64,000 nucleotides of DNA from an uncultured Myxococcales bacterium. Lineage in GTDB: Bacteria > Myxococcota_A > UBA9042. How positions within the stretch are numbered: position 1 is the first letter of the stretch; each line of letters begins with the position of its first letter. The notes under the pieces are model-generated. The model was not told the DNA's origin and searched no databases. It saw only the letters and a program-made list of their open reading frames with translations. Below, piece after piece: positions 27,665-58,652 of this stretch. The translations under genes and the position numbers were made by a program. The stretch covers positions 7,120-71,119 of the forward strand of contig CAINLT010000173.1 of the NCBI GenBank assembly GCA_903850505.1. The letters are read 5' to 3'.

Positions 27665-28726
27665 TCAGCGGACCGCGATTTCCAGCGTCACCAGCGGACT
27701 GGCCAACAAACCGCGGCCGATCAGCCAGACGTGGTCGCTTTGCTCCTGACCCTGCGCGCAATGCAGCACCGGGTACTGCGCGCGCTTCGGTTGCAGACCG
27801 GCGGCGAAGCTGGCGATTTCCTGCGGGCTGGCGCCGCTGCGGATGGCCCAGAGGTGGACGCGGCGGTCGGCTTCATTGACACCGCCTTCGCAGCCGGTCG
27901 ACAGGAGAACGCCGCCGTCCGCCAGCGCCGTGATGCCATGGACGGGACCTTGGAGGCGTCCAAGGGTCGTCAGCGTGCGCGTCTGGCGGTCCCAGCGCAG
28001 CGCGATGTTCTTGAACCGGCCCGCGTCGCTGCCGGCGTCCGTGCCCCAAATGACCGCGTCGGGCAGGAACGCCACGCCGATGGCACGCCATGACTGGTTG
28101 CCGCCGCCGATGACCTGCCAGCTTGCGCCGCGGTCCGTGGAGCGCCACAGCGCGCTTTCGGCGTCGCGGTCGCCCGTGCCGAGCCACAGCGAACCGTCCA
28201 CTGGATCCTGCTGGATGAAGTGGATGTGGCGGACCAGACCGGCGGCGAACGCGAAGACTTGTTGAAAGGTGTGGGCGCCGTCGTCGGAGCGCCACAGGCG
28301 GATCGCGCGGTCGCGGCGCGGATTGAGCGTGTATTCGGCGCAATAGACTTGGCCTTCGGCGCTGCGCAGCACGCCCAGACGCGCGGGTTTGCGGAAGTCG
28401 AACTGCAATGCCTCGTGCCAGCGGCCATCCTCGACGCGCCACAGGCGCCCCGTTGCGACCACAAGCTGCGCCCGATCGGTCAGCGGCAGCAAGCCGTGGA
28501 TGCCGATCCGGAGCGCCTGACCGACAAATGCCGACCGGCCCAGCAAACGCTGCCACGCGGGTTCAGGCAGGCGATCCTGGAGCTGCCACGGGCTACCGGC
28601 GAGCGCGCGCGTGTACAGGCGCCCGCCGCGACTGGCCCACACGCGGCCGAAACCGAGCGCATGGACCGAGAGGCCGCGCCAGGAGCCGAGGATCTGGATG
28701 CCTGGGTGTGTTGCGCCGAGCAGCAT
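27665..28726 (-). CDS. Cytoplasmic BNR/Asp-box beta-propeller-like protein
   Basis: Two Asp-box-like motifs (WRSDDGAHTF, WRSTDRGASW) and repeated blade-like segments. No signal peptide. ATG 28726 has a GGAGGA RBS. Confidence 0.65.
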   Translation of the reverse strand: MLLGATHPGIQILGSWRGLSVHALGFGRVWASRGGRLYTRALAGSPWQLQDRLPEPAWQRLLGRSAFVGQALRIGIHGLLPLTDRAQLVVATGRLWRVEDGRWHEALQFDFRKPARLGVLRSAEGQVYCAEYTLNPRRDRAIRLWRSDDGAHTFQQVFAFAAGLVRHIHFIQQDPVDGSLWLGTGDRDAESALWRSTDRGASWQVIGGGNQSWRAIGVAFLPDAVIWGTDAGSDAGRFKNIALRWDRQTRTLTTLGRLQGPVHGITALADGGVLLSTGCEGGVNEADRRVHLWAIRSGASPQEIASFAAGLQPKRAQYPVLHCAQGQEQSDHVWLIGRGLLASPLVTLEIAVR

Positions 28727-28887
28727 GGCGTCCTCCGTGGAGCAGGGCACGCGGCAAAGGGCGTGGCGCTCATCGCGACGTCGCCCGCGCTCTGCGCAAG
28801 GGATCGTCACGCGAATGCGCGGAGGCTCGCGCAGCGAGTCTCCGGTCCGGGTGCGTGCGTCAGCACCCCACCCGGACTAGAGCCCGG

Positions 28888-28950: not shown

Positions 28951-30513
28951 TCACAGTGGGGCGCGTTCCTGCAGGAAGTGCTCAAGCTGGCGGTTCGTCG
29001 TCCAACGGCGGAACATTTCCATGTCCTTCTCGTCGGCGTTCTCCAGCTTGTACATCAGGTAGTCGAAGATCGACTTGTGCTTCTTGCACCACACGGAATC
29101 CCGCATGTGGCCGTGCAGCGAGCCTTGGGTCTTGTAGTTGTACTCGACCTGCTGGCCGCACCACGGCTTGTACACGCAGCTCACGCAATCCGGCTGCGCG
29201 TCGTTCAAGCCCGCCATCACAATCGCGCGGGTCTGCGCGTTGGTCATCAGCTGGTGGTATGTGTCGTCGACCGTGCCAATCTTGAACATCTCATCGCCCA
29301 TCGCGGCGACGAAGCGACCTTCATCGCTCGAGTAGACGTTGCCGTCCGGCGCGTAGCCCAGCTGGCCGATGCATGCGCCACCCGGCGTCCGCAGGTCCAG
29401 GTAGTTGGGCTCCTGATCCGCGAGGATCTTGTTCAACATGATCGACGCGTGCCGCTCCATCACCTGCGTGCCGTTGCGGTTCAGCTCGATGATGTAGTCC
29501 ACGGCGTGGGCGTAGAACTCGAGGAAGTCGTCCATCGAGTAGCCCAGCGTCTTGGCCGTGCGCTCCGCAAACCCGAACGGGTCGAGCTTGCGCAGGAACA
29601 CCGCCTTGCAGCCGGCTTCCACGTACGTGTCGACGATTTCTTTCCACCGATGCAGGCTCGGCTTGGTGATCGTTGGCAGCGCTTCCACGCGGTACAGGTT
29701 GGTGTCGAGGCCAAGCTCGCCGTAGCGCGCGTTGATCCGCTTCATCCAGTACATCAGGGTTTCCTGACTGTTGCCGTCCTTGAAGATGCGGATCTTGTTG
29801 TGCAAATCCGCCGGACCGTCGAGGCTCGTGCAGATCTGCACTTTGCGATCGAGCAGGTACTCCATCTTCTCGTCGTCCATCAGCGACAGATTCGTCACCA
29901 GGGCGAACGACAGCGCCTTGTTGGCCAAGGCGTTCTTCTGCCGCGCGTACTCGACGATGTGCTGCAGCACTTCCCAGTTCGCGGTGGGCTCGCCGCCCTG
30001 GAACTCGATGGTGATGCCCGGGCTCGTCGTCTGGAACACGAGGTCGACCGCGCGCTCCGCCGTCTCGATCGACATGTCCGTGTCTTTGCGGTCCATGCCG
30101 ACGATCGAGCTGTGGCAGTACTGGCAACCGTGGTTGCAGCGATGCGTCAGCACAAACGCGTGCAGCGTCGGGCCGTAGAACAGGTATTGCTTCTTGCGTT
30201 TCCAGCGCTCCGCCTGCTCCGCGACGTTGATTTCCTTGGCGATGAAATTGCGCGCCTTGAGCTTCTCGTACAGCGGCTCACCCGGCAGGGGCTTGCCCTC
30301 GATGAAGTCGCGGAACTCGTCCTGCGTCAGCAGGTCCCAATCGCCCATGTCATTGGAAATCAGGATCTTCTTGCCGAGCTGCCGCTGGTTGAACGGCACC
30401 GCAAACTCAGGTTTCCAGCGGCCCGGGCTGGAAATCTTCGTCAAATCAACCTGTTTGCCTTTGGGCAGCAGATCGTGCTTCTGGCTTTTGGTCTGAAGCG
30501 TGGTCGCTGTCAT
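28951..30513 (-). CDS. Radical SAM/SPASM-domain maturase, HxsB-like
   Basis: CNHGCQYC (CxxxCxxC) at residues 126-133, preceded by an N-terminal domain of about 120 aa. The C-terminal SPASM-type region contains GGACIGQLGY...DCVSCVYKPWCGQQ. An AGGAG RBS lies upstream of ATG 30513. Confidence 0.85.
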   Translation of the reverse strand: MTATTLQTKSQKHDLLPKGKQVDLTKISSPGRWKPEFAVPFNQRQLGKKILISNDMGDWDLLTQDEFRDFIEGKPLPGEPLYEKLKARNFIAKEINVAEQAERWKRKKQYLFYGPTLHAFVLTHRCNHGCQYCHSSIVGMDRKDTDMSIETAERAVDLVFQTTSPGITIEFQGGEPTANWEVLQHIVEYARQKNALANKALSFALVTNLSLMDDEKMEYLLDRKVQICTSLDGPADLHNKIRIFKDGNSQETLMYWMKRINARYGELGLDTNLYRVEALPTITKPSLHRWKEIVDTYVEAGCKAVFLRKLDPFGFAERTAKTLGYSMDDFLEFYAHAVDYIIELNRNGTQVMERHASIMLNKILADQEPNYLDLRTPGGACIGQLGYAPDGNVYSSDEGRFVAAMGDEMFKIGTVDDTYHQLMTNAQTRAIVMAGLNDAQPDCVSCVYKPWCGQQVEYNYKTQGSLHGHMRDSVWCKKHKSIFDYLMYKLENADEKDMEMFRRWTTNRQLEHFLQERAPL

Positions 30514-30543
30514 ACGTGTTGGCTCCTGTAGCTGCTTGCGCGC

Positions 30544-30783
30544 CTAGGCTTTCTTGGTTTTCTTGCGACCGGCCGTGTTGGCCAGCGCGAAGTTGCAGAA
30601 CTCGGCCACCACGTCGCCATCGACGTCCGGATCGATGTCCTTGATGTCCACGGCGTAGTAGTCGCCATCGCGCTTGATGGTGAACGCGGCAAAATCGGCA
30701 AACGTGGTCGCCGCATCCTTCACCGCCTGCTGCATGTACAGCGTGCGGTGCAACTTGACCGACTGGTGTGTGACATGGCTCAT
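30544..30783 (-). CDS. HxsD-like small protein (79 aa), tentative
   Basis: ATG 30783 has an AGGAG RBS 9 nt upstream. It aligns by eye with the neighbouring 148-aa protein (LY....V..AA..F.D.A, EF.N..LA) and has a Lys-rich C-terminus, GRKKTKKA. Confidence 0.55.
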   Translation of the reverse strand: MSHVTHQSVKLHRTLYMQQAVKDAATTFADFAAFTIKRDGDYYAVDIKDIDPDVDGDVVAEFCNFALANTAGRKKTKKA

Positions 30784-30842
30784 GCGAAGAACTCCTGAAA
30801 AAAGTCCGAACCGTTTGAAAACGCGGGCATTTGTTGGACGGG

Positions 30843-31289
30843 TCAGGCGTCTTTCTTCTTCTTGAACTTGTCTTCCCACGGCACGGCGATCCCCAGCGGA
30901 TCGTCGAGGAAGTCCATCCCGTCGTCGCCCGCCGCGAGGAAGTCGGTCGGCAGCGTGCCGCCAGCCGCGCCCGCAATCGCCTGGCTCGTGATGTCTTCGA
31001 TGATCTTCTGGTTGGCCTTCACGACCTTGCGACGCAGCGCCTGAGCGAGCAGCTCGTTCTCGAACTCACCGGACATCGCCGTCAGCTGCGCTTCGGTCAG
31101 CTCGCCTTTGCCGCGGAGATGCACTTCATAGCGCGGTCCGGCGCGGTCAAGCAGCACGTACGCGCGGTCGAGAAAGACGTACGCGGCGGCATACAGCACG
31201 TCAGCCGGGTACAAGCCGATGTCGAGCGACAGCGTCATCGTGTGGGTTTTCGGGTCGAGTTTTTCAATCTGAGGGTGGCCCATGCTCAT
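30843..31289 (-). CDS. HxsD-like protein (148 aa), tentative
   Basis: The core LYPADVLYAAAYVFLDRAYVLL....YEVHL and the segment EFENELLAQALRRK recall the HxsD family motif LLNDYxLRE (TIGR03976). It ends in an acidic then Lys-rich tail, DDGMDFLDDPLGIAVPWEDKFKKKKDA. Confidence 0.6.
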   Translation of the reverse strand: MSMGHPQIEKLDPKTHTMTLSLDIGLYPADVLYAAAYVFLDRAYVLLDRAGPRYEVHLRGKGELTEAQLTAMSGEFENELLAQALRRKVVKANQKIIEDITSQAIAGAAGGTLPTDFLAAGDDGMDFLDDPLGIAVPWEDKFKKKKDA

Positions 31290-31376
31290 GTACTCCAGTA
31301 GTGCAAAATGCCCCGGATGCGGGAGGGCGATCGCTGATTCGGCGGGGGTCGGCCGAAAATGCGCGCGCCCCAGCTT

Positions 31377-32645
31377 CTACTCTTGTCCGGATCGAACTTC
31401 AAGGCGCGTCGCCGGCACCCGTCCGCTCGCGATCGGCTCTGGGGGCACGACGAGTCCCGTATCCACATCGTCCTCATCATCCGACGGATGCCAGCCTGCC
31501 GCGTCGGGCGTCCAGTCGCGCGCCGTGTGATCGGTCTTGCGCTTGGGGTCCATCGCCATTTCTGTCAGCCGTTCGCCGGTCGGCGCCTGCACCTTGCCCG
31601 GGCGGGACACTTCACCGCCCGCGACGCTCTGCTGCGTCCCCGATTTGCCCTGATGCGCCGCCGGGATTGCCGCCAGGTTCTTGAACTTGGCCATCCGCCA
31701 CGCCGGATCCGACTGCAAATCCTGGACGATGCGCGAGATGATCGGCTTGGGATCCTGGAAGATCGGTGACAGCTCCGCGGGATCGTAGGCGTTGCCGCGG
31801 TCAAACAGCCCGCCGCAAATGGACCGCAGGCTGCATGAATTGCACACGTCCGCGTACAGGTGGCCCCATTCGGTCTGGCGGACCGTGCCCTTGTTGTCCA
31901 GGAAGTGGACGATGCGCTCCTCGCTCTTGACGATCTTGCGCGTCTCGGTCGAGCAGTGGGCGAATTCCGTCATGTAGCACAGCGGCACGCGCTCGACGCG
32001 GAACGACCGCCCCGTCTCCGCCAGCATCCGCATCGCCTTCGACAAACTGACTTCGATGTCCTGGAGGCGCGCGGCAAAGTACTGGTTGCTCGTCGCGCGA
32101 CCGATCGACGGATCCAGGTTGTTCCACACGAAGTGCTGGATGAACGGGAAGTTCTTGATGAACCACTCAATGTTGCCGTGCAAGTGGTCGCAATTGTAGC
32201 GGGTAATGACCGTGTTGATGTTGACGGTGATGTTGGTCTTGCCCAGGTTGGTCAGCGCCTTCTCCGCCCAATCCAGCGAGCCGGGCGTGCCGGTCAGGAA
32301 ATCTTCCAGCTTGTGCTTGTGGCTGTGGATCGACACGTGGACGTGCTGCAGCCCGGCGTCGGCCAGCGACTTGCAGTAGTCCCAATCGGCGAGCTTCTGG
32401 CCGTTCGTGATCATGCGCACATGCAGGCCGTTGGCGCGCGCGTGGGCGATGGCTTCCGGCAGGATCGGCGAAAGCGTCGGCTCGCCGCCGGTCATGATGA
32501 CGCCAAAGTAGTCGCGGCTGACAAAGTCGTCGACGATCTGGTGGATCTGCTCCAGGTTGTGGAAGAACGGCGTCTCAGGATTGGAGCAAAAGCCGCAATT
32601 CTGGTTGCAGTGCCGGACCATCTGGATGTAGCCGATGTTGGCCAT
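31377..32645 (-). CDS. Radical SAM protein (in HxsC-like position; long low-complexity C-terminal tail)
   Basis: MANIGYIQMVRHCNQNCGFC (CxxxCxxC at residues 13-20), IMTGGEPT, VSIHSHKHKLEDFLTGTPGS and a C-terminal Cys motif DVCNSCSLRSICGG. ATG 32645 is preferred to 32735. Confidence 0.85.
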   Translation of the reverse strand: MANIGYIQMVRHCNQNCGFCSNPETPFFHNLEQIHQIVDDFVSRDYFGVIMTGGEPTLSPILPEAIAHARANGLHVRMITNGQKLADWDYCKSLADAGLQHVHVSIHSHKHKLEDFLTGTPGSLDWAEKALTNLGKTNITVNINTVITRYNCDHLHGNIEWFIKNFPFIQHFVWNNLDPSIGRATSNQYFAARLQDIEVSLSKAMRMLAETGRSFRVERVPLCYMTEFAHCSTETRKIVKSEERIVHFLDNKGTVRQTEWGHLYADVCNSCSLRSICGGLFDRGNAYDPAELSPIFQDPKPIISRIVQDLQSDPAWRMAKFKNLAAIPAAHQGKSGTQQSVAGGEVSRPGKVQAPTGERLTEMAMDPKRKTDHTARDWTPDAAGWHPSDDEDDVDTGLVVPPEPIASGRVPATRLEVRSGQE

Positions 32646-32837
32646 TGAACGACTCCGTGGGCGCAGGTTCGGGGGAACGGGCGCGAACAGGCAGTGTGCC
32701 GGATTTTTTGGCCGACTGCACGCTTCGTCCGCCAACCCGCTGTTTTGCCGCTGATGTTGAGCGGCGGCTGGCGGTCTTGACCGCGGCTCGCCCGGAGGCG
32801 CAGACTTTTTCCAGCCTCACTTGGCAGGAGATGGCCC

Positions 32838-33290
32838 ATGTTTCCCACGCGCCCGAGTCCCCACCGCCGACCTGAACACGCCCGTAAGCCGCACCTGCTG
32901 GCGTGGCTGTGCGTGTTCGCCTCGGCCAGCGCGCTGACGTCGTGCCGCAATGAGCCGACCATCTCGCAGCCCAACGCGGTTGCGCCCGCCGCGGCAGCCA
33001 AACGCCCGCCGCAACCGGCACCGCAACTCATGGACCAAACGCTCACGCGCGCGCACCTGCGACCGATGCGGGACTGCTTTCACGGCCTGGGCTACCCGAC
33101 GGAGCGGCCGATGAGCCTCGGCATTTCGATTGAGACCAAGGGCGACGCGCTGGCGACGACCGTGTTCGCGATGACCGATGTGCAGGTGCCCGAAGGCGTG
33201 GCGAAGTGCCTCAAACAACGCGTTCCGGCGCAAGGGTGGCCGCCGGGCGTGTATTTTGCCGATTGGCCCAACGATGACAGCTGGCCGTAG
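32838..33290 (+). CDS. Hypothetical lipoprotein with TonB/AgmX-like C-terminal domain (tentative)
   Basis: Lipobox FASASALTSC and an AGGAG RBS. The C-terminal pattern R.MRDCF......P..L.I.IE..G......F...DV..P.GV..CL is like small periplasmic TonB-C/AgmX-type domains. Confidence 0.6.
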   Translation: MFPTRPSPHRRPEHARKPHLLAWLCVFASASALTSCRNEPTISQPNAVAPAAAAKRPPQPAPQLMDQTLTRAHLRPMRDCFHGLGYPTERPMSLGISIETKGDALATTVFAMTDVQVPEGVAKCLKQRVPAQGWPPGVYFADWPNDDSWP

Positions 33291-33293
33291 CGG

Positions 33294-35246
33294 CTAGCCC
33301 TCGCGGCCGATGCCCAGTTCGCCGATCGCCTTGGGCTTGTGCAGGCCAACGGTGCGCTGCTGTTCGCGCTTGGTGCGCTGGGCGTTCGCGTCGGCCAACT
33401 GCTCCGTCAGGCGGTCAAAGCTCGCGGCGTCGGGCAGCGGCTTGCCGGCTTCATCGAGCGGCGTCTGGATGGCGAAACCGTGGCTGCGCAGGTAGTTGAT
33501 GTGCGTGCCCTGGCACGTCTCAAATTGCGAGCACCGGCCGCAGCGGATCGACTTGCTGTAGTACGCGTGTTCCACGTAATGGCCGACGTACTTGTCCAGG
33601 TTGAGAAAGCCCGCGCCGTCCAGCAGCGTCGCGTCCAGCAGCTTGATGTCGCCCGGCTCGGTCTCCGCGCCCGCCACGCAGCGCGTCACGTTGCGCATGC
33701 GCAGGCCAGCCTGTGCCAGCTTGCGGAGCGTCGCCGGATCCGGATCTTCCGCCTGCGACTCGGACAGGTATTCGTGCGTCTTGAGCGTCGCGATGAGCCG
33801 CGTGCCCCACGCTTTGAGCGTCGCCGGTCGCGCCAGCAGCCACGAGGCCAGCTCGCGCGTCAGCATCACTTCCACTTCAGTCGGCGCCGGAATCGCATGC
33901 GCGCCCACCAGATAACGCGCCGCGTCGTCCGTCGTCGTCACCACAAAGCGCTTGATCTCGCGCGGGGGATTCTTCAGCAAGGGCTGGGGATCCGCGCCCG
34001 CGTCCAACTGCAGCGTCACGTCGGCAGCCGGATGGACCGCGCGCGCCAGCGCCGCCTTCGCGTCTTCCGCATCGCGCGCCGTCAGCCACAGCCGCTGCGG
34101 CTGTTGCGCTTCGAACTTGGCTTTCGCTTCCGTGCCCTGCCAGACGTGCTGGCTGTCCACACGCACCAGCGGGAACGTGTGGGATTCCAGCATCTCCCGG
34201 TACGGGAACATCGTGCTGCGGCACGGGCCGTCGAGGAAGCAGTAGTCGCAGCGCTCGCCCCAGCAGTCGGGCTTGAGGCCTTTGCGCAGGAAGCCTTCAA
34301 AATTGTGGCGGCCGCCGTCGAATTCGCTCAGCAGCTTGTGCGGATCCTGAATGAGCCGCTCAAAACCTTCCAGGTACATGACCGGCAGGCGATTGGTCCA
34401 CAGGTACACGCCCTCGCGGTCGGCGAGCTTGAACGCGCGGCGGAAGTACGGCACGGCGTCGTTCAGGTCAAAGAACAGCGAGTGGCGGTGCTCGTCAAAG
34501 CCGCGGCCAAACGGGATGATGTGCAGGAGGTCAAACTCGCGGATGCCGAGGTTGTAGTAGTACTCCAGGATCTCAGGCAGCTGCTTGTAGTTCTGCTTGT
34601 TGATGACCACGTCGATGTTGACGACGACCTTGCCGGTCTCCCACAGGTTCTGGATGCCCTTGATGCCGGTAACGAACGCGCCGGGCGTGCCAGTCAGCTT
34701 GTCGTGGATGTGCGCGGTGTGGCCGTGCATGGAAACGGTGGCCTCGTTCAGGCCGGCTTCCGCGCACGCGTTGGCGAAGCGCTTGTAGCTGAACATCATG
34801 CCGTTGGTGATCGTCTGGATCCAGTCGTAGCCAAGCTGCTTGCCGTAGCGGATCAGCTCCACGTACTGCGGATGCACGCTGGCCTCGCCGCCAGACAGGA
34901 TGAGCCGTTCGCGGCCCATGCGCCGACCCAGCGCGATGTAGGCTTTGAGCGACTCGACGTCGATCATCGTGCCGTCCTGGTTCATCGAGTCCAGGCAGAA
35001 TGTACAGCGCTGGTTGCAGAGCCGCGTCACACGCACCCAGTGGCGCTTGTGCTTCATCGCGGCTTCCTTGACCGCGTCTTTGTTCTCGCCATCGCCGGAC
35101 GGCAGCGCTTCCATGCGCGTGCCTTCAGCCAACTCCGTCGCGCGCAATGCCTCGGCTTCGTCGCGATTCAGGATGCCGTCGCGCACCAGCTTGTCGATGT
35201 CAATTTCAAGGGTCGTCGCGTCGCCGCGGATCTCGTTGTCAGGCAT
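33294..35246 (-). CDS. Radical SAM protein, 650 aa, with extended C-terminal region
   Basis: CNQRCTFC at residues 77-84, ILSGGEAS and VSMHGHTAHIHDKLTGTPGAF. A first auxiliary Cys motif CWGERCDYCFLDGPC and a terminal CGRCSQFETCQG are separated by about 230 aa. Confidence 0.85.
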   Translation of the reverse strand: MPDNEIRGDATTLEIDIDKLVRDGILNRDEAEALRATELAEGTRMEALPSGDGENKDAVKEAAMKHKRHWVRVTRLCNQRCTFCLDSMNQDGTMIDVESLKAYIALGRRMGRERLILSGGEASVHPQYVELIRYGKQLGYDWIQTITNGMMFSYKRFANACAEAGLNEATVSMHGHTAHIHDKLTGTPGAFVTGIKGIQNLWETGKVVVNIDVVINKQNYKQLPEILEYYYNLGIREFDLLHIIPFGRGFDEHRHSLFFDLNDAVPYFRRAFKLADREGVYLWTNRLPVMYLEGFERLIQDPHKLLSEFDGGRHNFEGFLRKGLKPDCWGERCDYCFLDGPCRSTMFPYREMLESHTFPLVRVDSQHVWQGTEAKAKFEAQQPQRLWLTARDAEDAKAALARAVHPAADVTLQLDAGADPQPLLKNPPREIKRFVVTTTDDAARYLVGAHAIPAPTEVEVMLTRELASWLLARPATLKAWGTRLIATLKTHEYLSESQAEDPDPATLRKLAQAGLRMRNVTRCVAGAETEPGDIKLLDATLLDGAGFLNLDKYVGHYVEHAYYSKSIRCGRCSQFETCQGTHINYLRSHGFAIQTPLDEAGKPLPDAASFDRLTEQLADANAQRTKREQQRTVGLHKPKAIGELGIGREG

Positions 35247-35363
35247 AAATGGCTCGCTTGCGAACGAATGGCTAAGGCTGACGACACCTGGGGGGACGGG
35301 CTGGTCGCGCCTAGCAGTTTGGCGGTTTTGCCCCGTATCGCAAGCGGTCAGCGAAAAGTGCTG

Positions 35364-36245
35364 CTATTTCCGGGTGCTCGCGGTCGGCGGGGCGTCGGTC
35401 CGCGCGGTGATGCCGGCCCAGCCAAAGCGCTGCGCCGTTGCAGTCAGCAGCCCCGGGCAACCCGCGCGCCACGTGCACGCGTCGCACTGTGGGCCGTGTT
35501 CGCGCTCGTGTTTGGCCGCTCCTTCCGCAACGACGGATACCGCGGCCTCCTTGGCTGCATCCGCGGCGCGGTCGCCCAGCAGGCACGCCGGCACATCGAG
35601 CACACTGCTGCGCTTCTTGGCCGCCGCGGTCATCTGCAGCGCCTGGCGCAGGTAGGGCGCGGCCATCTCCAGCGACGGCAGCAGCGGCTGCCCCACGCGA
35701 TCCGGCCCGGGCAGGGCGACAAACCGGAACGCGGCCACGTCCAGCGCCAGCGACTTCTGGACCAGCAGCGGCAGCGTGCGGAACGTCGGCCGCAGGATCG
35801 GCGCGATGACGGCAGTCTTGCCGCCCAGCGCGCGCACCCGCTTCAGGCCGGCAATCACGCGCTGAAAGTGGCCGGGCTGGCCGGTCACCCAGTCGTGCGC
35901 CTCCGCGGAATCGCCGTAAAGGGGCAGCGCCACCGTCGTGACACCGGCGCGCAGCACCGCTTCCACTACGCCGGGACGCGCGAGCATCAAGCCGGACGTC
36001 CACAGTTCGACGGCCTTGGCGGTCTGCCGCGCGTGTTGCAGCAGGTCCAGCGCCTCGGGTCGGGAAAGCAGATCGCCGTCGCGCAGCACGATCTCCGCCT
36101 GACCCGCGGCGGCGTCGATGGCTGTCGCCACTGCCGACGCTGTCGCGAGCGCTTCGACGCGCCCAGGCGCATCGCTCCCGCGGCACAAAGGGCACGCCGC
36201 GGAAATAAACGGATGCGGACAGGAACTACCAGTCAGGACGTGCAC
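35364..36245 (-). CDS. Radical-SAM-fold paralogue with non-canonical cluster motif (Cx9Cx2C)
   Basis: GTG 36245 has a GGAGG RBS 5 nt upstream. ATG 36317 would overlap lspA. It reads VHVLTGSSCPHPFISAACPLC and shares VALPLYGDSAEAHDWVTGQPGHF and a terminal CDACTWRAGCPG with the two neighbouring radical SAM proteins. Confidence 0.65.
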   Translation of the reverse strand: MHVLTGSSCPHPFISAACPLCRGSDAPGRVEALATASAVATAIDAAAGQAEIVLRDGDLLSRPEALDLLQHARQTAKAVELWTSGLMLARPGVVEAVLRAGVTTVALPLYGDSAEAHDWVTGQPGHFQRVIAGLKRVRALGGKTAVIAPILRPTFRTLPLLVQKSLALDVAAFRFVALPGPDRVGQPLLPSLEMAAPYLRQALQMTAAAKKRSSVLDVPACLLGDRAADAAKEAAVSVVAEGAAKHEREHGPQCDACTWRAGCPGLLTATAQRFGWAGITARTDAPPTASTRK

Positions 36246-36349
36246 AGGAACCTCCGGGGTCAGAAGCGTAGGGCCCGCGGTCGGCGGTTGCAACGTTGAC
36301 GTGGATCGCCCGGCCACCTATTGTGCGCAACCCGATTGCCGGAGACGCC

Positions 36350-37309
36350 ATGACGCGCGCTGAATCCCATTCCATGAACCTGCCGCGCATCGGTCCGTTC
36401 GCCCTTGTTGTGATCGTGCTGGTGCTCGATCTGGCCAGCAAGTACTGGGCGGCGACGACGCTGGCCTCGGCCGTGCATCCGCTCGTGTTGCGACAAAGCG
36501 ATGGCGCGACCGTGCAGGCCGCATTGCAAGCCAAGGGCTGGTCAGTGCAGGAGATTGCCGACACGGTCCACGGCGGGCAGGTGACCCGCTATCAGCCGGT
36601 GCATGGCTTGGACGCCAAACACGTGATTGCCGCGACCGACCTGTCGCTGGAACTGGTGACGCTCGGCGGCACCGGGCTGCTCGCGCCGCGGCGTTGGCGG
36701 CCGATGCCGCAGGACCTCGGGCAGCCGCTGGACGACCTGCTCGCGACGGCGTGGCGCGTGGATCCGGCGGACGTGCCGGGGCTGCTGCAGCACGCGTGGC
36801 GCAACAACGCGCGCATCGACGAGCCGGCAACATCTATCGCGGCGGATGAACTTGTCGCCGTGCGCGACCACTCGATCCGCATCTGTGACAGCTTCTCGCT
36901 GGTCTACGCGGAGAACTTTGGCGCGGCTTGGTCGTTCCTCGCCACGTCTCCGCCGATCGTGCGCTTCGTGCTGTTCGTGAGCATTTCGACGATCGCATCG
37001 CTGGTCATGGCGTGGGTGCTGTGGAAGCGCAAGATGGCGAGCGTGCTTTCCACTTGGGCGCTCGCAGGCATCCTCGGCGGCGCGGTCGGCAACCTGATCG
37101 ACCGCATCCACTACCGCGCGGTCGTCGACTTCATCTTCAACTACGTCGTGTTCGACGACACCAGCTTCTGGGGCCGGACTTTTGGCCCGGGCTTGCACGG
37201 CTGGCCCGTCTGGAACATTGCCGATGCCGGCATCACGGTGGGTGTCATCCTGATCGCGCTCGATTCCCTGCGTCAGCCGAAGACGCCGCCGCCCGCGCCA
37301 AAGGCGTGA
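36350..37309 (+). CDS. lspA: Lipoprotein signal peptidase (signal peptidase II) with large loop insertion
   Basis: LDLASKYWA, NFGAAWSF, NLIDR, VVDFI and WPVWNIADAGITVG. 319 aa, against about 165 aa for typical LspA. Confidence 0.85.
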   Translation: MTRAESHSMNLPRIGPFALVVIVLVLDLASKYWAATTLASAVHPLVLRQSDGATVQAALQAKGWSVQEIADTVHGGQVTRYQPVHGLDAKHVIAATDLSLELVTLGGTGLLAPRRWRPMPQDLGQPLDDLLATAWRVDPADVPGLLQHAWRNNARIDEPATSIAADELVAVRDHSIRICDSFSLVYAENFGAAWSFLATSPPIVRFVLFVSISTIASLVMAWVLWKRKMASVLSTWALAGILGGAVGNLIDRIHYRAVVDFIFNYVVFDDTSFWGRTFGPGLHGWPVWNIADAGITVGVILIALDSLRQPKTPPPAPKA

Positions 37310-37321
37310 TCGAGGTCTGCG

Positions 37322-38290
37322 GTGCACCCTAGCTTTGACCTCGGTTTCATCCAGCTGCCGGCGTATTTTACGCTGCTGATGGTCGGGTTCACGCTGGCGA
37401 TCCTGTTGGCGCACGCCGAAGGTATGCGCAAGGGCTTGGACGGCAACACGATTTTGGATCTCGGCCTGCTGATGCTGGTCATGGGCCTCGTCGGCGCGCG
37501 TGTGCTGCACGTGATCGCCGACGGCCAGTTCATGGACTACGTGCACCTCTGCACCGATCCCAGCCAAGTGCCGGGCCTCGCGCTTGGCCCGGGCGTGCAC
37601 TGCGCAGACGCGGACCAGTGCGTGCGCGCGGGGCTCGGCGACCTGTGCGAGGCGTCGAGCGGCCTGTGTCGCCAGCAGCAGGACTGCCTGCGCGTCCTCA
37701 AGATCTGGTACGGCGGCTACGCTTACTATGGCGGCTTCCTCGCGGCCGTCCCGACCGGCCTGTGGTTCCTGCGCCGCCGCCGCGTGTCCATGTGGAAGGT
37801 CGCCGACCTCGCCGGCTGGGCCATCGCGCTCGGCCTCGTCTTCGGTCGCATCGGCTGCCTCCTTGCCGGCTGCTGCTTTGGCGCGACGAGCCAAGCCGCG
37901 ACCGCGCTCGCGTTTCCCAAGTATTCACCGGCGTGGGACAAGCAGGTGCACCTGCATCAGATCACCACGAGCGCGGCGCAATCGCTGCCGGTCCACCCGA
38001 CCCAACTGTACGAGGCGCTGGCTTGTGCGGTGATTTTCCTCATCTGCCTCTGGCGCTACCGCAAGGGTCCGCGCTTTGATGGGCAGATTTTCTTCCTGTT
38101 CATGTTGCTCTACGCCCTGTTTCGTTTCAGCGTGGAGTTCCTGCGCGCCGACGACCGCGGCGAGTGGTTCGGTCTGCTCTCGACGTCCCAGCTCATCAGC
38201 CTGCCGCTGCTCGTGTGGTCGGGCTGGGTGCTGGTGCGCGGTCGGGCTTGGCCGAGTGAACCCGTATTGCCTGCCGCGGCAGGAGCGTAA
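37322..38290 (+). CDS. lgt: Prolipoprotein diacylglyceryl transferase
   Basis: GARVLHVI, YGGFLAA, GRIGCLLAGCCFG, HPTQLYEA and FRFSVEFLRADDRG. GTG start. Confidence 0.88.
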   Translation: MHPSFDLGFIQLPAYFTLLMVGFTLAILLAHAEGMRKGLDGNTILDLGLLMLVMGLVGARVLHVIADGQFMDYVHLCTDPSQVPGLALGPGVHCADADQCVRAGLGDLCEASSGLCRQQQDCLRVLKIWYGGYAYYGGFLAAVPTGLWFLRRRRVSMWKVADLAGWAIALGLVFGRIGCLLAGCCFGATSQAATALAFPKYSPAWDKQVHLHQITTSAAQSLPVHPTQLYEALACAVIFLICLWRYRKGPRFDGQIFFLFMLLYALFRFSVEFLRADDRGEWFGLLSTSQLISLPLLVWSGWVLVRGRAWPSEPVLPAAAGA

Positions 38291-38293
38291 AAG

Positions 38294-39127
38294 ATGAACG
38301 TGCAGCCGTTGCTCCAGAATCAGTCTCCGCAGACCCCGGCTCCGTCCGGGCTGGCGTCCTTGCCAGCCGACATGCGCGACGCGCTGCAGACGCTCGGCGC
38401 TGCGGGCCGACTGCCGGAGCACGTCGCCATTATCATGGACGGCAATGGTCGCTGGGCGCAGCGCCGCGGTGAAGCGCGCACCGTTGGCCATCGTGCGGGC
38501 GCGGACTCCGTGCGTGCCGTGACGCGACTGGCGCGGGAAGTCGGCCTGAAGTCGCTGACGCTGTACGCATTTTCCGAGCAGAACTGGCAGCGGCCGCGCG
38601 CGGAAGTAGACGTGCTCCTCGGCCTGCTGGTGGAGTACCTGGCGTCAGAAATCGAGGAACTCAAGCGCAGCGACATCAAGCTGCTGGCGTTTGGCAACCT
38701 CCAGCGCCTCCCGCTTTCCGTGCGCATGGTGCTGGAAACGACGCTGGCGGCGACAGCCAACCACAAGACGATGAAGCTGGGGCTGTGCCTGAGCTATGGC
38801 GGCCGCGAGGAGATCGTCCAGGCGATGCAGCGGTTGGCAGTGCGTGTGGCCAAGGGCCAGTTGCGGCCAGAGCAGATCGATGAGGCGGCGATCGAGGCGG
38901 AATTGTGGACAGCGCCGTTGGGCGGTCCGCTGGATCTGCTGATTCGCACGTCAGGCGAACAGCGGCTCTCCAACTTTCTCTTGTGGCAAAGCGCATACGC
39001 GGAGCTGGCTTTTGTCCAGACGCCGTGGCCGGAATTTCGCGAGCTTGCCTTTGCGGCCGCGCTCTGCGACTACTCGCACCGCGATCGCCGTTTTGGCGGG
39101 CTTGGCAACGCCAGGGACGAAGACTAG
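38294..39127 (+). CDS. uppS: Isoprenyl transferase (undecaprenyl-diphosphate synthase family)
   Basis: HVAIIMDGNGRWA, AFSEQNWQRP and LLIRTSGEQRLSNFLLWQSAYAE. Confidence 0.92.
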   Translation: MNVQPLLQNQSPQTPAPSGLASLPADMRDALQTLGAAGRLPEHVAIIMDGNGRWAQRRGEARTVGHRAGADSVRAVTRLAREVGLKSLTLYAFSEQNWQRPRAEVDVLLGLLVEYLASEIEELKRSDIKLLAFGNLQRLPLSVRMVLETTLAATANHKTMKLGLCLSYGGREEIVQAMQRLAVRVAKGQLRPEQIDEAAIEAELWTAPLGGPLDLLIRTSGEQRLSNFLLWQSAYAELAFVQTPWPEFRELAFAAALCDYSHRDRRFGGLGNARDED

Positions 39128-39149
39128 AGCGCGGCACGCGGAGGTTGGC

Positions 39150-39956
39150 ATGGCACAGCGGGTCATCACAGGTCTCATTCTGGCGCCGATTCTGATCCTG
39201 ATCGTGCTCTACGCGCCCAAATTCGTGTTCTTTGCCGTGCTGGCGATGGCTGCGGCGCAGGGCGTCGACGAATTGGTCCGCATGTACCCGGAAATTCGCG
39301 CGCAGGACCGCCTCGTCCTCGCGCCGCTGGCGATGCTGACGGCGTTTGTCGTCGGCGTGCGCGAGATGTGGCTGATTCCCAGCGTCCTGCCGGTCGCGTG
39401 GCTGTGCTGGTGTCTCGTGCGCCCGGGATCGGTTGAGGCGGCGGGCAAGCGCGCGGCGATCGGCCTGCTCGGCCTCGCGTACGTCGCCACGCTGTTTGGC
39501 GTGATCGTGCAGACGTTCGCGCTCGCTCAGGTGCCCGCTGGGGGGCGTTTTGACACCGGCCGCGGTGCGGTGCTCTCGCTCCTGATCGTCGTCTTCGCCG
39601 GCGACACCGGCGCGTACTTTGCCGGACGATCCTTTGGCCGCCACAAGCTCTACGAACTGATCAGCCCAAAAAAGACGATGGAGGGCGCGATCGGCGGTCT
39701 CGCAGCCTCGATCCTCGGCGGCTTTGTCGCGCAGCAGCTGCTGGTGCCGCAACTGACCGTCGTTCAGGGCCTGCTGATGGGCGCGACGGGCGGCACGGTC
39801 GGCCAGATCGGCGATCTCGCGGAGTCGCTGTTCAAGCGGGCGACGGGCACCAAGGATTCCGGCGGTCTGCTGCCGGGTCATGGCGGCATCCTCGACCGGC
39901 TGGACGGCGTGCTGTTTGCCGCGCCGGTGATGCTCGCGTGGATGCTGTTTCACTGA
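39150..39956 (+). CDS. cdsA: Phosphatidate cytidylyltransferase
   Basis: Multi-TM protein with the C-terminal signature SLFKRATGTKDSGGLLPGHGGILDRLDG. ATG 39150. Confidence 0.88.
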   Translation: MAQRVITGLILAPILILIVLYAPKFVFFAVLAMAAAQGVDELVRMYPEIRAQDRLVLAPLAMLTAFVVGVREMWLIPSVLPVAWLCWCLVRPGSVEAAGKRAAIGLLGLAYVATLFGVIVQTFALAQVPAGGRFDTGRGAVLSLLIVVFAGDTGAYFAGRSFGRHKLYELISPKKTMEGAIGGLAASILGGFVAQQLLVPQLTVVQGLLMGATGGTVGQIGDLAESLFKRATGTKDSGGLLPGHGGILDRLDGVLFAAPVMLAWMLFH

Positions 39957-40651: not shown

Positions 40652-41463
40652 ACGCGCGCGGCGACGCGACAAAACACGTGGGCGATCAGGCAAAGCCCAT
40701 GGACACGTTGCTTCTGCTTGCGTTCCGGTAGTTGCTTTGCTAACGTCAACGATGGAGGACCGGTACTTGGCGTCGAGAGCGCCCCGTTACCGGTCGCCGT
40801 CGCAACTGCCTGATCCGCAACAGCGACGGGTTTGACCGCTCAACCTCCCCAGGTTGACGCAGGCGAGCCTCCGAATACCGAATTCCGTGTAGTCGACCGT
40901 TGGACGGGGTTTCAACGACGACTGCAAGTGGCGCTCCGACGGCGCGAGACGGTGCAAATCGTCCCGCGCTTCCCCAACGGGCGCTTGAGAATTCGCTGCC
41001 GACGATGAATCTGTGGATGGCTGCCAGGCCCGAAACAGCCCGCATCGTGCGACGGAACAAGTTACGGTTGCGATCCCCCTGCAACAGTGCCGATACGACA
41101 GGACATTCCAACGAGTTAGGGTGCAAAAAGTCTTCAAGACGTCTCCATATCGGAGGCCGGCGAAGACCGACGGCAAGTGCGACTGGACGCCCATCGAATA
41201 CACCTCCGCAGGAAAGGCCAACCTGCGGTTGCGATGGCTGCCAGCCGAGAGCAGGGAGTGGTTTCTGACACCTGAGCTGCGCTGAAGATGCGCGGCGACA
41301 ACGACAAGCGGCGACGCTTGCTGACACAGGTAGACGAAGCCAGTGGGAATCGAACCGGCAGCATCACGCGATGCCGCACGAGCCGAACCCGCACACATCT
41401 CCCCGCCATGCCACTGCTGAATGCGCCCTCCCTTTGCCGGAATCTGTCGTCAAGAGGAATGCG

Positions 41464-44400
41464 ATGCGGAACCAGCACATTGCGCGCATGTGTAGCCCGG
41501 GGCTCTCTACTGCCCACCGCACACAGGACGAACGGTCGTCAAAACGCTTCGGACTTGGCTTTGCCAAGTTTGGCGCGTTTTTGGCGTTGTCGCTCCTGAC
41601 TGCGGGTCTAGCCGGCTGCGCTGGTCAAACGCCTTCGACGGAGAAGCCGGCAACGCCGGACGTCGCGATTGGCGTGGACGCTGAGTTCGGTGTCGAGACC
41701 TTCGCACTGACAACGCCGACGATTGCGGTGACTGCGCCGGCCAACCAGGCCGCGTTTCCCGTGTCCACGAACGCTGGCACGACCAACGTGGACTACACGT
41801 ACTCGACGACGAACTACACCGGCAACGAGGTGCATTGCTACGTCGACGGCATCCTCTTTGGCACCTTCACGGTGGGCTCGCCGGTCACGTTTACCGGCCT
41901 GAAGAAGGGCGGCCACACGCTGGCTTGCGTGCTGCTGGACGCGACGGGTCAGGACCTGTTTGACGCCACCGGCGCCGCGCAAGGCGTGCGTCAGGTCAAG
42001 ATCACGGCGCCCTGCGGCAAGGACCTCGACTGCGATGACGGCGATGCCTGCACCGGCGAGTACTGCCAGGCTGGCACCTGCGTCGTCCAAATCGTGCCGA
42101 ACTGCTGCACGTCCAACTTCGACTGCTCCGCGGGCAGCAACTGCATCAATCCGAACACCCAGAATTCCCAGTGCTCGGCGTGCTTGACCGACGCGAACTG
42201 CGACGACGGCGACGCCTGCTCCACCGACAAGTGCGACCTGAGCGGCGTCAAGGGCGTCTGCACGCACAACAAGAGCGACCCGAACTGCTGCACCAAGGCG
42301 ACGGACGCTTGCTCCGACGGCAAGCCCTGCACCACGGACGCGTGCGTCCTGCCCAGCGGCGGCGGCATCGGTACCTGCAATCACGTCCAGCCGGCCGGCG
42401 CCTGCTGCGCCGACAGCGAGTGCGCGTCTGACGACGTCTGCAAAGTCGGTGGCTGCATCGCGTTCCAGTGCCGCTACACCGCGGACAGCTACTTCAAGCC
42501 GGACTGCTGCTCCGCGACGAGCAACACCACTTGCGACGACAAAAACGCTTGCACCAAAGACGCTTGCGCCACCGCCATGCCCGGCGGCTGGACGCAGTGC
42601 ACGCACAGCAAGACCGACCCGAATTGCTGCGACCCGCTGGTCGACCTGTGCGACGACGGCCAGCCCTGCACGTTGGACAAGTGCGTCAACAACCAGTGCA
42701 CGCACACCAAGAACACGGAGTGCTGCCAGAACAACGCGATGTGCGACGACAACAACCTGTGCACCAACGACTCCTGCGACGTGCCGAACCAGTTCTGCCA
42801 TCACGATGCCGTCGCCGGCTGCTGCAACATCAACAAAGAGTGCGATGACGGCTTGTACTGCACGAGCGACTACTGCGACGCGCCGATCAACACCTGCAAA
42901 CACGTTGGCTTGTTCAACGGCTGCTGCGACATCGACACGGACTGCAACGACGGCAAGTACTGCACCGCCGACGTGTGCGTGAACCACCAGTGCCTGGGCT
43001 TGCCCATCACGGGCTGCTGCGACTCCAACAATGCGGCTTCGGCCTGCAACGACAAGCTGTTCTGCACGATCGACAGCTGCGACCTGACCCAGCACACCTG
43101 CGTCAACGTGCCGAACGGCGACAGCACCTGCTGTGACTCCGGCGCTGCCTGTGACGATGGCGACTGCTCGACAAACGACGCATGCGACTCGACCAACCAC
43201 TGCACGCACAAGGCCAACCCGTACGCGTGCAAAGTGGACCTCGACTGCGACGACGGCGCGCCCTGCACGCAGGACGTCTGCAACCTGAACGCCGATGGCT
43301 GCGGCGCATGCACGCACCCGCTGATTGAGAACTGCTGCACGACGGACGCGTATTGCGCCGCGGCTGACAAGGCGATCAACCCGTACCTCGCGACGTGCCA
43401 TACGGCGACGTGCGACCCGTCGACCCACTTCTGCGCGTTTGGCGTCAAGGCGGATTGCTGCCTGAGCGACAAGGACGCGCTGACCAAGTGCGACGACTCC
43501 AACCCGTGCACCGTGGAATACTGCCAGAACAACCAGTGCCGCCACAGCACGCCGGCCACCGGTTGCTGCACCAACGACGCGGCTTGCGACGACGGCGTTT
43601 CCTGCTCCGCCGACAAGTGCAACATCACCGCCGGCCAGCCGACCGGCACCTGCCAGTACGTGCTGACGCCGCCGTGCGCGATCTGCACGCCGACCAACCT
43701 GGCTTCGTTCGACGACGCCAACAAGTGCACGGCCGACACGTGCGTCAACGGCGTCCCAACGCACACGCCGATCGCGGGCTGCTGCCTGGACAAGACCGAC
43801 TGCGACGACGGCAAGGCCTGCACTGCGGACGCGTGCATCGCCAACACCTGCTACCACACCGACACCGTCGCCGGCGTCTCCGTGTGCTGCAATCCGCTCA
43901 ATGAAGCGACCGAGTGCGCGTCCTTCAACAGCGACTGCACGCAGGGCAAGTGCCTCCAGCAGACCGACGGCACCCTCGCCTGCCAGGCCACCAAGAAGGC
44001 CGCCTGCACTGTGAACCTCAGCTACTGCCAGGACTTCAGCCAGAGCAGCGACCTTTCGACCCTCGGCTGGGATCCGACCAACGTCAGCGGCACGGCTGCG
44101 AGCAACTGGAACACCGCCACGACCGGCAACCTCGGTCCCGACCGCTTCGCCCAGTTCAACTGGACGCCGACCAAGGTTGGCTATGACACGTGCCTCCAGT
44201 CGCCGGTCTTCCTCGGCTCGGGCACCAGCGCCATCACCATCCAGTACGATCGCGAGTTCATCCCGAACGTCGGCGAAACCGGTATCCGCATCCTCGGCTC
44301 GCTCGACGGCACGTACGCCGACTGGCAGACCGCGACGGTCATCGATTCGTTCACGACGACCAGCGGCGTGGGCCCGGAAACCGTCGACCTGAAGTTGCCC

Positions 44401-55369: not shown

Positions 55370-55446
<77 letters not shown>

Positions 55447-58400: not shown

Positions 58401-58652
58401 CTCGGGCAGCAGCAGCGGAACCTCCGGCAGCGTGTCCGCGACCGTCAGCTGCGAGCCAAACAGCAGCTTCAGGCCCAGATCTTTTGCCGCCTCGTGCGCC
58501 CGCACGATCCCCGGGACGCCATCGCGATCCGTCACCGCCAGCGCCGGCAGGCCCAGCGCATGCGCGCGTTCGACAAGTTCGTCGGGCCGCGAGGCGCCTT
58601 CCAGAAAGCTGAAGTGGGTTTTGACCCACAGCGGTACGTACGGCGTTGTCAT
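55485..58652 (-). CDS. dnaE2: Error-prone DNA polymerase (Pol III alpha-like) DnaE2/ImuC
   Basis: PHP N-terminus ([27 protein letters not shown]) and a Pol III alpha core. It is the last gene of an imuA-imuB-dnaE2 array. ATG 58652 overlaps the imuB stop (ATGA). Confidence 0.92.

Follow-up and report, generated by a model that had tools for sequence, protein, structure and literature searches.

A stretch of DNA from an uncultured Myxococcales bacterium (contig CAINLT010000173.1; 64 kb, hereafter the window) carries a cluster of genes for radical S-adenosylmethionine (SAM) enzymes and small HxsD-type proteins, and the question that it raises is what these enzymes modify. The cluster resembles the His-Xaa-Ser (HXS) systems, in which such proteins mature a repeat protein, HxsA, and no protein of that kind is encoded beside it. 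We consider it probable (roughly 0.7) that the cluster forms the maturase module of a His-Xaa-Ser system of the HxsA4 type, with a precursor gene that, in this lineage, is not linked to it.

All six open reading frames (ORFs) of the cluster lie on the minus strand, where the sequence-only reading of the locus had placed them. Gene A (35364..36245) encodes a 293-residue HxsC-like paralogue with a radical SAM fold, B (33294..35246) and C (31377..32645) encode HxsC-like radical SAM enzymes of 650 and 422 residues, D1 (30843..31289) is a long-form HxsD of 148 residues, D2 (30544..30783) is a 79-residue HxsD-like protein (NF038315) and E (28951..30513) is an HxsB-type radical SAM enzyme of 520 residues. 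Every ORF is intact, and the G+C content at third codon positions (GC3) of all six, 0.81–0.88, is of the coding type. The six genes do form a 7.3-kb minus-strand block, but not the unbroken run that had been described: a plus-strand ORF of 150 residues (32838-33290) lies between B and C, which implies two or more transcription units (A-B and C-D1-D2-E).

The six proteins were compared with NCBIfam models at the curated bit-score cut-offs; the families TIGR03976 to TIGR03979 were reportedly described by Haft and Basu in 2011. Residues 39–505 of protein E align with positions 2–466 of the 466-position HxsB model (TIGR03978) at 517.8 bits, compared to a cut-off of 370, and this full-length match bears out the proposed resemblance to HxsB. 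Sequence identity is 36% to Acidiphilium HxsB and 28% to Klebsiella HxsB. The motif CNHGCQYC is found at residue 126 and CVSCVYKPWC at residue 443, in a C-terminal cysteine region that is SPASM/twitch-like. Its description as a radical SAM/SPASM enzyme is supported by full-length matches to SPASM-family NCBIfam models, but not by the Pfam SPASM domain, for which no match was obtained at an E-value of 0.1 or below. Matches to cyclophane-synthase models are weak (40–62 bits), and the nearest solved structures are CteB and anSME, which are peptide- or protein-modifying enzymes.

D1 passes the HxsD model TIGR03976 (56.8 bits, cut-off 50) and D2 passes the NF038315 “HxsD-like” model (69.4 bits, cut-off 41), with a weak match to TIGR03976 (E-value of 7e-4). 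The two small proteins are HxsD-like, as had been suggested, and they are distant paralogues, with a profile–profile E-value of 5e-4 in hhalign and similar predicted topologies. In the AlphaFold2 prediction, residues 1–108 of D1 form a domain of β-β-α-β-β-α topology, followed by a disordered tail; the predicted local distance difference test (pLDDT) is above 90 for residues 10–100 and 54–63 in the tail. D2 is predicted to adopt a β-α-β-β-α topology (pLDDT 90.7). Comparison of this predicted fold with the PDB gave no significant match, the best (E-value of 0.1, template modelling score ∼0.5) being generic α/β sandwiches. D2 is highly conserved, with 23 invariant columns and 57–76% identity among 22 diverse homologues.

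A, B and C are mutual paralogues, as the sequence-only reading had recognized, with pairwise E-values of 1e-20 (B and C), 6e-14 (A and B) and 3e-7 (A and C); the NCBIfam models that they match best are HxsC and HxsC4. Each carries at its C-terminus the predicted CxxCx5C motif, which is common to the HxsC proteins of Klebsiella and Acidiphilium. The CxxxCxxC motifs assigned to B (CNQRCTFC), C (CNQNCGFC) and E were all confirmed, and each of these three proteins also has a GGE motif. In B, CNQRCTFC is located at residue 77, the GGE motif reads GGEASV and CxxCx5C is present twice, at residues 333 and 569, with the second copy in an additional C-terminal domain of ∼300 residues. In C, CNQNCGFC is located at residue 13, followed by GGEPTL, CNSCSLRSIC and a low-complexity C-terminal extension. 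Protein A has a non-canonical Cx8Cx2C motif (CPHPFISAACPLC), not the Cx9Cx2C read earlier, together with a degenerate GGE motif (RDGDLL) and the C-terminal CxxCx5C. Its start is ambiguous (GTG at 36245 or GTG at 36317) and its Pfam Radical_SAM score of 29.1 bits falls just below the cut-off of 29.5. The cysteine triad is gone in the orthologues at L005, L013, L016 and L018 (L-numbers designate the comparison loci that were fetched), and the C-terminal cysteine motif is invariant. As orthologues lose the triad yet keep CxxCx5C, and as the motif of A is itself non-canonical, A may be non-catalytic.

The window is ∼99% identical to CAIMLR010000039.1, a contig from a freshwater Myxococcales metagenome-assembled genome (MAG), without being the same sequence; D1 and D2 are 100% identical to their counterparts in this closest MAG. 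We designate as type I those loci that share the order of the window, with lspA and lgt divergent from A-B-C-D1-D2-E. This order was found in about 25–30 Myxococcota MAG loci, so that the six genes do co-occur as a unit in related genomes. Type I cassettes always adjoin lspA-lgt-(uppS)-cdsA, and at least 16 related loci retain this synteny. Across type I loci, identities are 65–78% for E, 62–75% for B, 57–81% for C, 57–75% for D1 and 52–77% for D2, compared to 59–76% for Lgt, 42–58% for CdsA and 29–51% for LspA. By these identities and the kept gene order, the cluster is constrained to the same degree as the housekeeping genes beside it, and it is passed on at a fixed chromosomal position. C is missing from the otherwise complete type I loci L013, L016, L022, L023 and L067. 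Eight records (L005, L006, L013, L023, L024, L199, L201 and L206) are titled “Klebsiella pneumoniae” or “uncultured Enterobacteriaceae”; they contain a high-GC Myxococcota-type locus with 60–80% identity to the window proteins, and the labels look wrong.

Larger cassettes, which we refer to as type II, have the order x1-x2-x3-x4-x5-D1-D2-E, followed by an aKG-HExxH-type peptide β-hydroxylase (TIGR04267, 97.8 bits). They occur in MAGs labelled Binatia, Polyangiaceae, Terriglobales, Dormibacterota and Thermodesulfobacteriota. Their x1 is a radical SAM fold devoid of the cysteine triad, x4 has two CxxxCxxC motifs, and some loci add a TPR protein and two further radical SAM genes. B is orthologous to the 648-residue x2 (34% identity over 595 residues, 318 bits), C to x3 (50% identity over 307 residues), and E is 76–80% identical to its type II counterparts, in MAGs labelled as other phyla. 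The core common to the window and the larger cassettes thus consists of B/x2, C/x3, D1, D2 and E; B was found in 40 of the non-redundant loci examined. Minimal forms consist of D1-D2-E with one HxsC-like gene of ∼300 residues (Anaeromyxobacteraceae MAGs), or of D1-D2-E alone. Protein-cluster searches returned 292 matches with D2 and 892 with D1, and all those with a source name came from a MAG or a metagenome.

The substrate was sought in these relatives. By six-frame scanning, no His-Xaa-Ser repeat protein was found within ±10 kb of any type I locus. However, a six-frame regular-expression scan of all fetched loci recovered (His-Gly-Ser)n, or (HGS)n, ORFs in seven related cassettes. These proteins of ∼100–140 residues consist of a Lys-rich leader, HxSHAS, 13–20 or more His-Gly-Ser repeats and a final Trp, and they score 79–102 bits (79 at L186, 102 at L047) on the HxsA4 model NF038313, for which the cut-off is 55. 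Nearby (His-Gly-Ser)13–60 ORFs are present in related cassettes of Binatia, Polyangia, Nannocystales and other lineages. Species-representative genomes were also scanned with a GC-rich (HGS)4 DNA pattern, and 80 of at least 119 matches were listed. At many loci among the matches listed, from Polyangia, Nannocystales, Elusimicrobia and Woesearchaeota, a long HxsD, an HxsB-like gene, an (HGS)n ORF and an HxsC-like gene lie in the same orientation. Two cultured organisms, Nannocystis exedens DSM 71 (L153, beside an HxsC-like gene) and Chondromyces apiculatus DSM 436 (L219), have (HGS)n ORFs, assigned by repeat pattern.

At least eight MAGs with a window-type cluster (SXRM01, CALENB01, CAIMEY01, JAUIAC01, CAMDBH01, JACRCU01, CAISBR01 and JBMOIG01) encode an (HGS)n precursor outside the cluster locus. 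In seven of them the precursor is on another contig, and in CAIMEY01 it is on the contig of the cluster, outside the fetched locus. These sister precursors have ∼100 residues with 13–20 HGS repeats, no peptidoglycan (PG)-binding Pfam domain and a leader in common (MKKTLPKLKKxAADFLSxEEGAISxKQE...AEHCS); the JAUIAC01 protein (L195) scores 92 bits on NF038313. Searching a protein collection with the type I leader gave a single fragment, which indicates that the precursors are rarely gene-called. In five of six complete loci, a co-directional L,D-transpeptidase gene (YkuD and PG_binding_1 domains) comes after that of the type I precursor. This conserved neighbourhood (L195:3262-6836, L206:2432-5665, L209:3199-7034, L193 and L222) is flanked by genes for HD-domain and flavin adenine dinucleotide (FAD)-dependent proteins. 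L222 comes from the source MAG of the type I locus L028, which thus still has an HxsA4 gene on another contig. The precursors L195:3262-3576 and L047:18296-18625 pass the Pfam Collagen gathering score (34.2 and 33.1 bits, compared to 27.2), since Gly-Ser-His is a Gly-X-Y repeat. In the Elusimicrobia MAG loci L158, L167, L223 and L198 and the Woesearchaeota MAG locus L170, the HxS-repeat ORFs end in ..HSRGGWC, not ..HGSW, and share a leader motif FLSSEEGK(M/I).

Several observations weigh against assigning the cluster to an HxsA4-type system. No His-Xaa-Ser repeat ORF was found in any frame of the 64-kb window, in agreement with the sequence-only reading, which saw none in or beside the cluster; tblastn of the precursors against the window returned low-complexity noise only. 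The nearest MAG of the window (CAIMLR01) and its three closest relatives gave no match among the 80 of at least 119 listed. The HxsC equivalog cut-off (TIGR03977, 267.9 bits) is missed by a wide margin by A (43.9 bits), B (83.1) and C (107.4), as is the 500-bit cut-off of the HxsC4 model NF038332, for which B scores best (98.6 bits; A, 47.6). By sequence, A, B and C are HxsC homologues and not equivalogs. Furthermore, in one type I sublineage (L024, L025 and L028) there is no HxsB-type gene after D2, and genes for outer-membrane-protein (OMP)-like proteins follow directly, so the linkage within the system is loose. Lastly, no biochemical work on any HxsA4-type system was found in the literature.

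The absence of a precursor from the window is best explained by unlinked placement, as in the eight or more sister MAGs, and we infer that this genome itself has an HxsA4 precursor gene. The earlier suggestion that the system lacks a His-Xaa-Ser substrate is therefore not upheld: related cassettes carry NF038313-type precursors nearby and the sister MAGs carry them elsewhere. In the HxsA4-type mechanism that we propose, the substrate would be a ribosomally made protein of ∼100 residues, with a leader, 13–20 His-Gly-Ser repeats and a terminal Trp, encoded at another locus. By analogy, E, B and C would use SAM-derived 5′-deoxyadenosyl radicals to modify the repeats at His, Ser or both, D1 and D2 may be small adaptors that bind the HxsC-type enzymes, and the disordered tail of D1 could act as a peptide for docking or regulation. 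In this scheme A would be a degenerate, possibly non-catalytic, partner, and the extra HxsC paralogues probably share out the reactions over the length of the repeat array or carry them out repeatedly. Both the chemistry and the adaptor function of the two small proteins are extrapolated from the characterized HXS system, and any function in export or in the biology of the cell is putative.

The D1 tail also suggests a different substrate. D1-type proteins (∼145–180 residues) consist of the folded domain, a linker and a near-invariant motif with the consensus (L/M)DFLDDPLGIAxPWE(E/D)K(F/Y), represented in D1 by FLDDPLGIAVPWE (residues 127–139; 30873..30911, minus strand; translation confirmed). 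Across 29 diverse homologues the linker varies in length and sequence, and ten positions are invariant, D123 and nine in FLDDPLGIAxPWE. A scan of species-representative genomes with the back-translated motif returned D1-type ORFs only, nearly always adjoining an HxsB-like gene. In the long HxsD of L137 (Bradymonadales MAG), the motif recurs once in degenerate form (DLDLGDDPLEIGALWEE), and there is also a long extension rich in Lys and Ala; the long HxsD of L170 carries the same DDPLGIAVPWEEKY tail, and a subset of the tails has a second motif in common, GPGDSGGFKP(S/T). D1 itself could thus be the substrate and FLDDPLGIAxPWE its core peptide, in a trio like MftA-MftB-MftC or PqqA-PqqD-PqqE. 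The position of this most invariant stretch of D1, after a variable linker and in a region predicted to be disordered, is consistent with such a role, as are the second copy in L137 and the loci where the minimal trio D1-D2-E, with or without one HxsC-like gene, is followed by convergent unrelated genes. However, the tail is also borne, as DDPLGIAxSWEEKY, by the long HxsD of cassettes in which an HxsA4 gene directly follows the HxsB-like gene, and so coexists with a dedicated substrate; moreover, the sister MAGs of the window carry HxsA4. The tail was demoted as the missing substrate once the (HGS)n precursors and its occurrence in precursor-adjacent cassettes were found, and we now regard it as an unlikely one. 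A resemblance between the precursor leader (..DFLS.EEG..) and the D1 tail (..DFLDDPLG..) is too short to claim.

Another alternative is that the enzymes act on a lipid, a cofactor or an envelope component, and that the resemblance to HXS systems reflects shared ancestry only. The constant proximity of type I cassettes to lspA-lgt-(uppS)-cdsA points in this direction, as do the housekeeping-like conservation and weak matches of the HxsC-like proteins to tetraether lipid synthase, BlsE, MoaA and AhbD. Yet these lipid-gene neighbours are confined to the type I lineage, a curated model identifies E over its full length as HxsB, the solved relatives of E modify peptides or proteins, type II cassettes add a peptide β-hydroxylase, and dedicated repeat-peptide genes co-localize with the family, all of which make a non-peptide substrate very unlikely. 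Least likely of all is a relic, decaying or idle after loss of the substrate gene from this genome, as might be read from the 64 kb devoid of a precursor, the degenerate GGE motif of A and the foreign plus-strand ORF inserted between B and C, because the 52–81% identity of B, C, D1, D2 and E across relatives, set against 59–76% for Lgt and 29–51% for LspA, argues for purifying selection, and the six ORFs are intact with coding-type GC3, D1 and D2 being unchanged in the closest MAG.

The cluster diverges from lspA-lgt-uppS-cdsA (36296-39956, plus strand). The lspA gene (36296-37309) encodes 337 residues, of which only 194–325 form the signal peptidase II domain; relatives retain the long extension at the N-terminus (median 337 residues), and lspA and A overlap by 22 bases if A starts at 36317. 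Further along the plus strand are a gene for a giant protein of 4577 residues (41371-55104) with 28 MopE-type putative metal-binding motifs (Pfam PF11617, 676 bits), whose homologues of up to 6227 residues are conserved beside the cluster at 16 or more type I loci, and a tRNA-Pro(TGG) gene (55370-55446), the sole RNA gene detected in the window. A DnaE-type DNA polymerase III α subunit gene (55485-58691) is on the minus strand. Rfam and tRNA scans found no RNA gene within the cluster, and consensus scans for promoters and terminators gave counts equal to shuffle expectation. The plus-strand ORF between B and C ends 3 bases from the stop codon of B, has a lipoprotein-signal-like N-terminus (..LLAWLCVFASASALTSC) and is confined to the closest relatives of the window, at identities of 54–86% compared to 94–99% for its neighbours; at L002 and L003, the ORF in the equivalent position has 276–296 residues.

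Downstream of the cluster are a BNR-like gene, thymidine phosphorylase, a HEAT-repeat protein and 5′-nucleotidase. The BNR-like gene (F, 27665-28810), downstream of E, was rejected as a component of the system: its conservation does not extend beyond the four closest relatives, and elsewhere this position is taken by an HExxH protein to which it bears no relation. In 16 type I loci (L005-L012, L022-L024, L040, L067 and others), E is followed by one or two tandem paralogues of ∼210–300 residues (e.g. L010:15565-16959), with signal peptides and a C-terminal ..L(V/M)YSW, like small outer-membrane β-barrels. These were also rejected as substrates, as the window has the BNR-like gene in their place and they contain no HxS repeats. 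PADLOC detected no defence family in the window, only generic radical SAM matches to viperin (pVip) models.

What such a system might do for the cell is more speculative. One possibility is that HxsA4-type systems are not phage defence but a vertically inherited pathway of uncultured Myxococcota, Binatia and others, in which the radical SAM enzymes would crosslink a collagen-like (Gly-Ser-His)n array into a His-rich envelope or metal-binding polymer, with the long HxsD tail as an assembly or docking signal. Hints in this direction are the Collagen score of the precursors (34 compared to 27 bits), the L,D-transpeptidase with a PG-binding domain after the precursor in five of six loci, the location of the cluster beside lipoprotein-maturation genes and near the 4577-residue MopE-motif protein, and a conservation equal to that of the housekeeping neighbours. 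We put this forward as a tentative suggestion that is unlikely to hold.

The function of a His-Xaa-Ser system was first assigned in 2026, and for one enterobacterial subtype only. In this antiphage system of Enterobacteria, the operon is hxsD-hxsB-hxsC-hxsA; maturation of HxsA depends on each of HxsB, HxsC and HxsD, and HxsD is recovered in pull-downs with HxsC (Li et al., Nat Commun 2026, PMC13128918). The cluster shares with it an HxsB-type enzyme, an HxsD, an HxsC-family enzyme with CxxCx5C and a His-Xaa-Ser substrate (here in sister genomes), and likely also the principle of radical SAM maturation of a repeat protein aided by a small HxsC-binding protein. The differences are considerable. 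Canonical HxsA has five HxS repeats and a PG-binding domain, compared to ∼100 residues, 13–60 HGS repeats, a terminal Trp and no PG-binding domain here. The precursor gene is part of the antiphage operon but is unlinked in the lineage of the window, where the order is A-B-(plus-strand ORF)-C-D1-D2-E with no HxsA. The 90-residue HxsD of canonical Klebsiella has no tail, whereas two HxsD-type proteins are present here, one with a conserved tail. Three HxsC paralogues, and up to about eight in relatives, contrast with the four-gene canonical operon, and E is only 28–36% identical to canonical HxsB. The canonical examples that we fetched are on plasmids, one among toxin-antitoxin genes, unlike the conserved chromosomal synteny seen here; no mobile or defence-island context was found around the cluster, which lies between lspA-lgt-uppS-cdsA and nucleoside-metabolism genes. 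The hosts differ as well, being Myxococcota, Binatia and others, whereas 99.7% of canonical HXS systems are in Pseudomonadota (PMC13128918).

Among curated families, the closest are the NCBIfam HxsA4, HxsD-like and HxsC4 models (NF038313, NF038315 and NF038332), whose existence means that the subtype is already catalogued. D2 passes the second and the sister and related precursors pass the first, but A, B and C are all below the HxsC4 cut-off. The earlier description of an uncharacterized variant system consequently survives for its HXS-related genes, two HxsD forms and extra HxsC-like paralogues, but not as substrate-less, and parts of it were modelled before. No paper describing this gene arrangement was found, and neither the literature nor the NCBIfam model names gave any account of an architecture with several paralogues, of a tail motif in HxsD or of a precursor encoded apart from the cluster.

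Chemical parallels extend beyond HXS systems. HtkB (PMC11499958) is a SPASM three-residue cyclophane synthase that forms a HisC2-to-LysC-β crosslink. Synthases of this kind are SPASM-type radical SAM enzymes, and they crosslink an aromatic residue or His to the residue two positions away, in repeated three-residue motifs. Such crosslinking is a plausible chemical precedent for His-Xaa-Ser units. However, a simple crosslink is expected to give −2 Da, whereas the single mass change so far determined for an HXS system, on SHRSS, is +8 Da (PMC13128918), so the cyclophane precedent does not explain the HXS modification. The PqqA/PqqD/PqqE and MftA/MftB/MftC trios likewise have small protein(s) and a SPASM-type enzyme as an invariant core, very conserved across phyla, but the substrate here is a long repeat array and not a single short core. 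As the predicted fold of the HxsD and HxsD-like proteins has no significant match among solved structures, nothing supports a PqqD-like peptide-recognition domain.

The HxsA4-type subtype has a broad distribution that takes in uncultured Myxococcota, Binatia, Polyangia, Elusimicrobia and also an archaeal MAG, with far longer and simpler (His-Gly-Ser)n substrates and up to about eight radical SAM enzymes. Its long regular repeat should make the modification far easier to detect by mass spectrometry than in canonical HxsA, and N. exedens DSM 71 and C. apiculatus DSM 436 are tractable experimental entry points. More generally, little can be concluded about the absence of a substrate from the lack of its gene beside a peptide-maturase cluster, and in this case protein collections built from gene calls also mostly omit the precursor. 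The subtype found in the window thus departs from the characterized HXS system in the type of substrate, in how many radical SAM enzymes it has, in the duplication and extension of HxsD, in genomic context and in host range.

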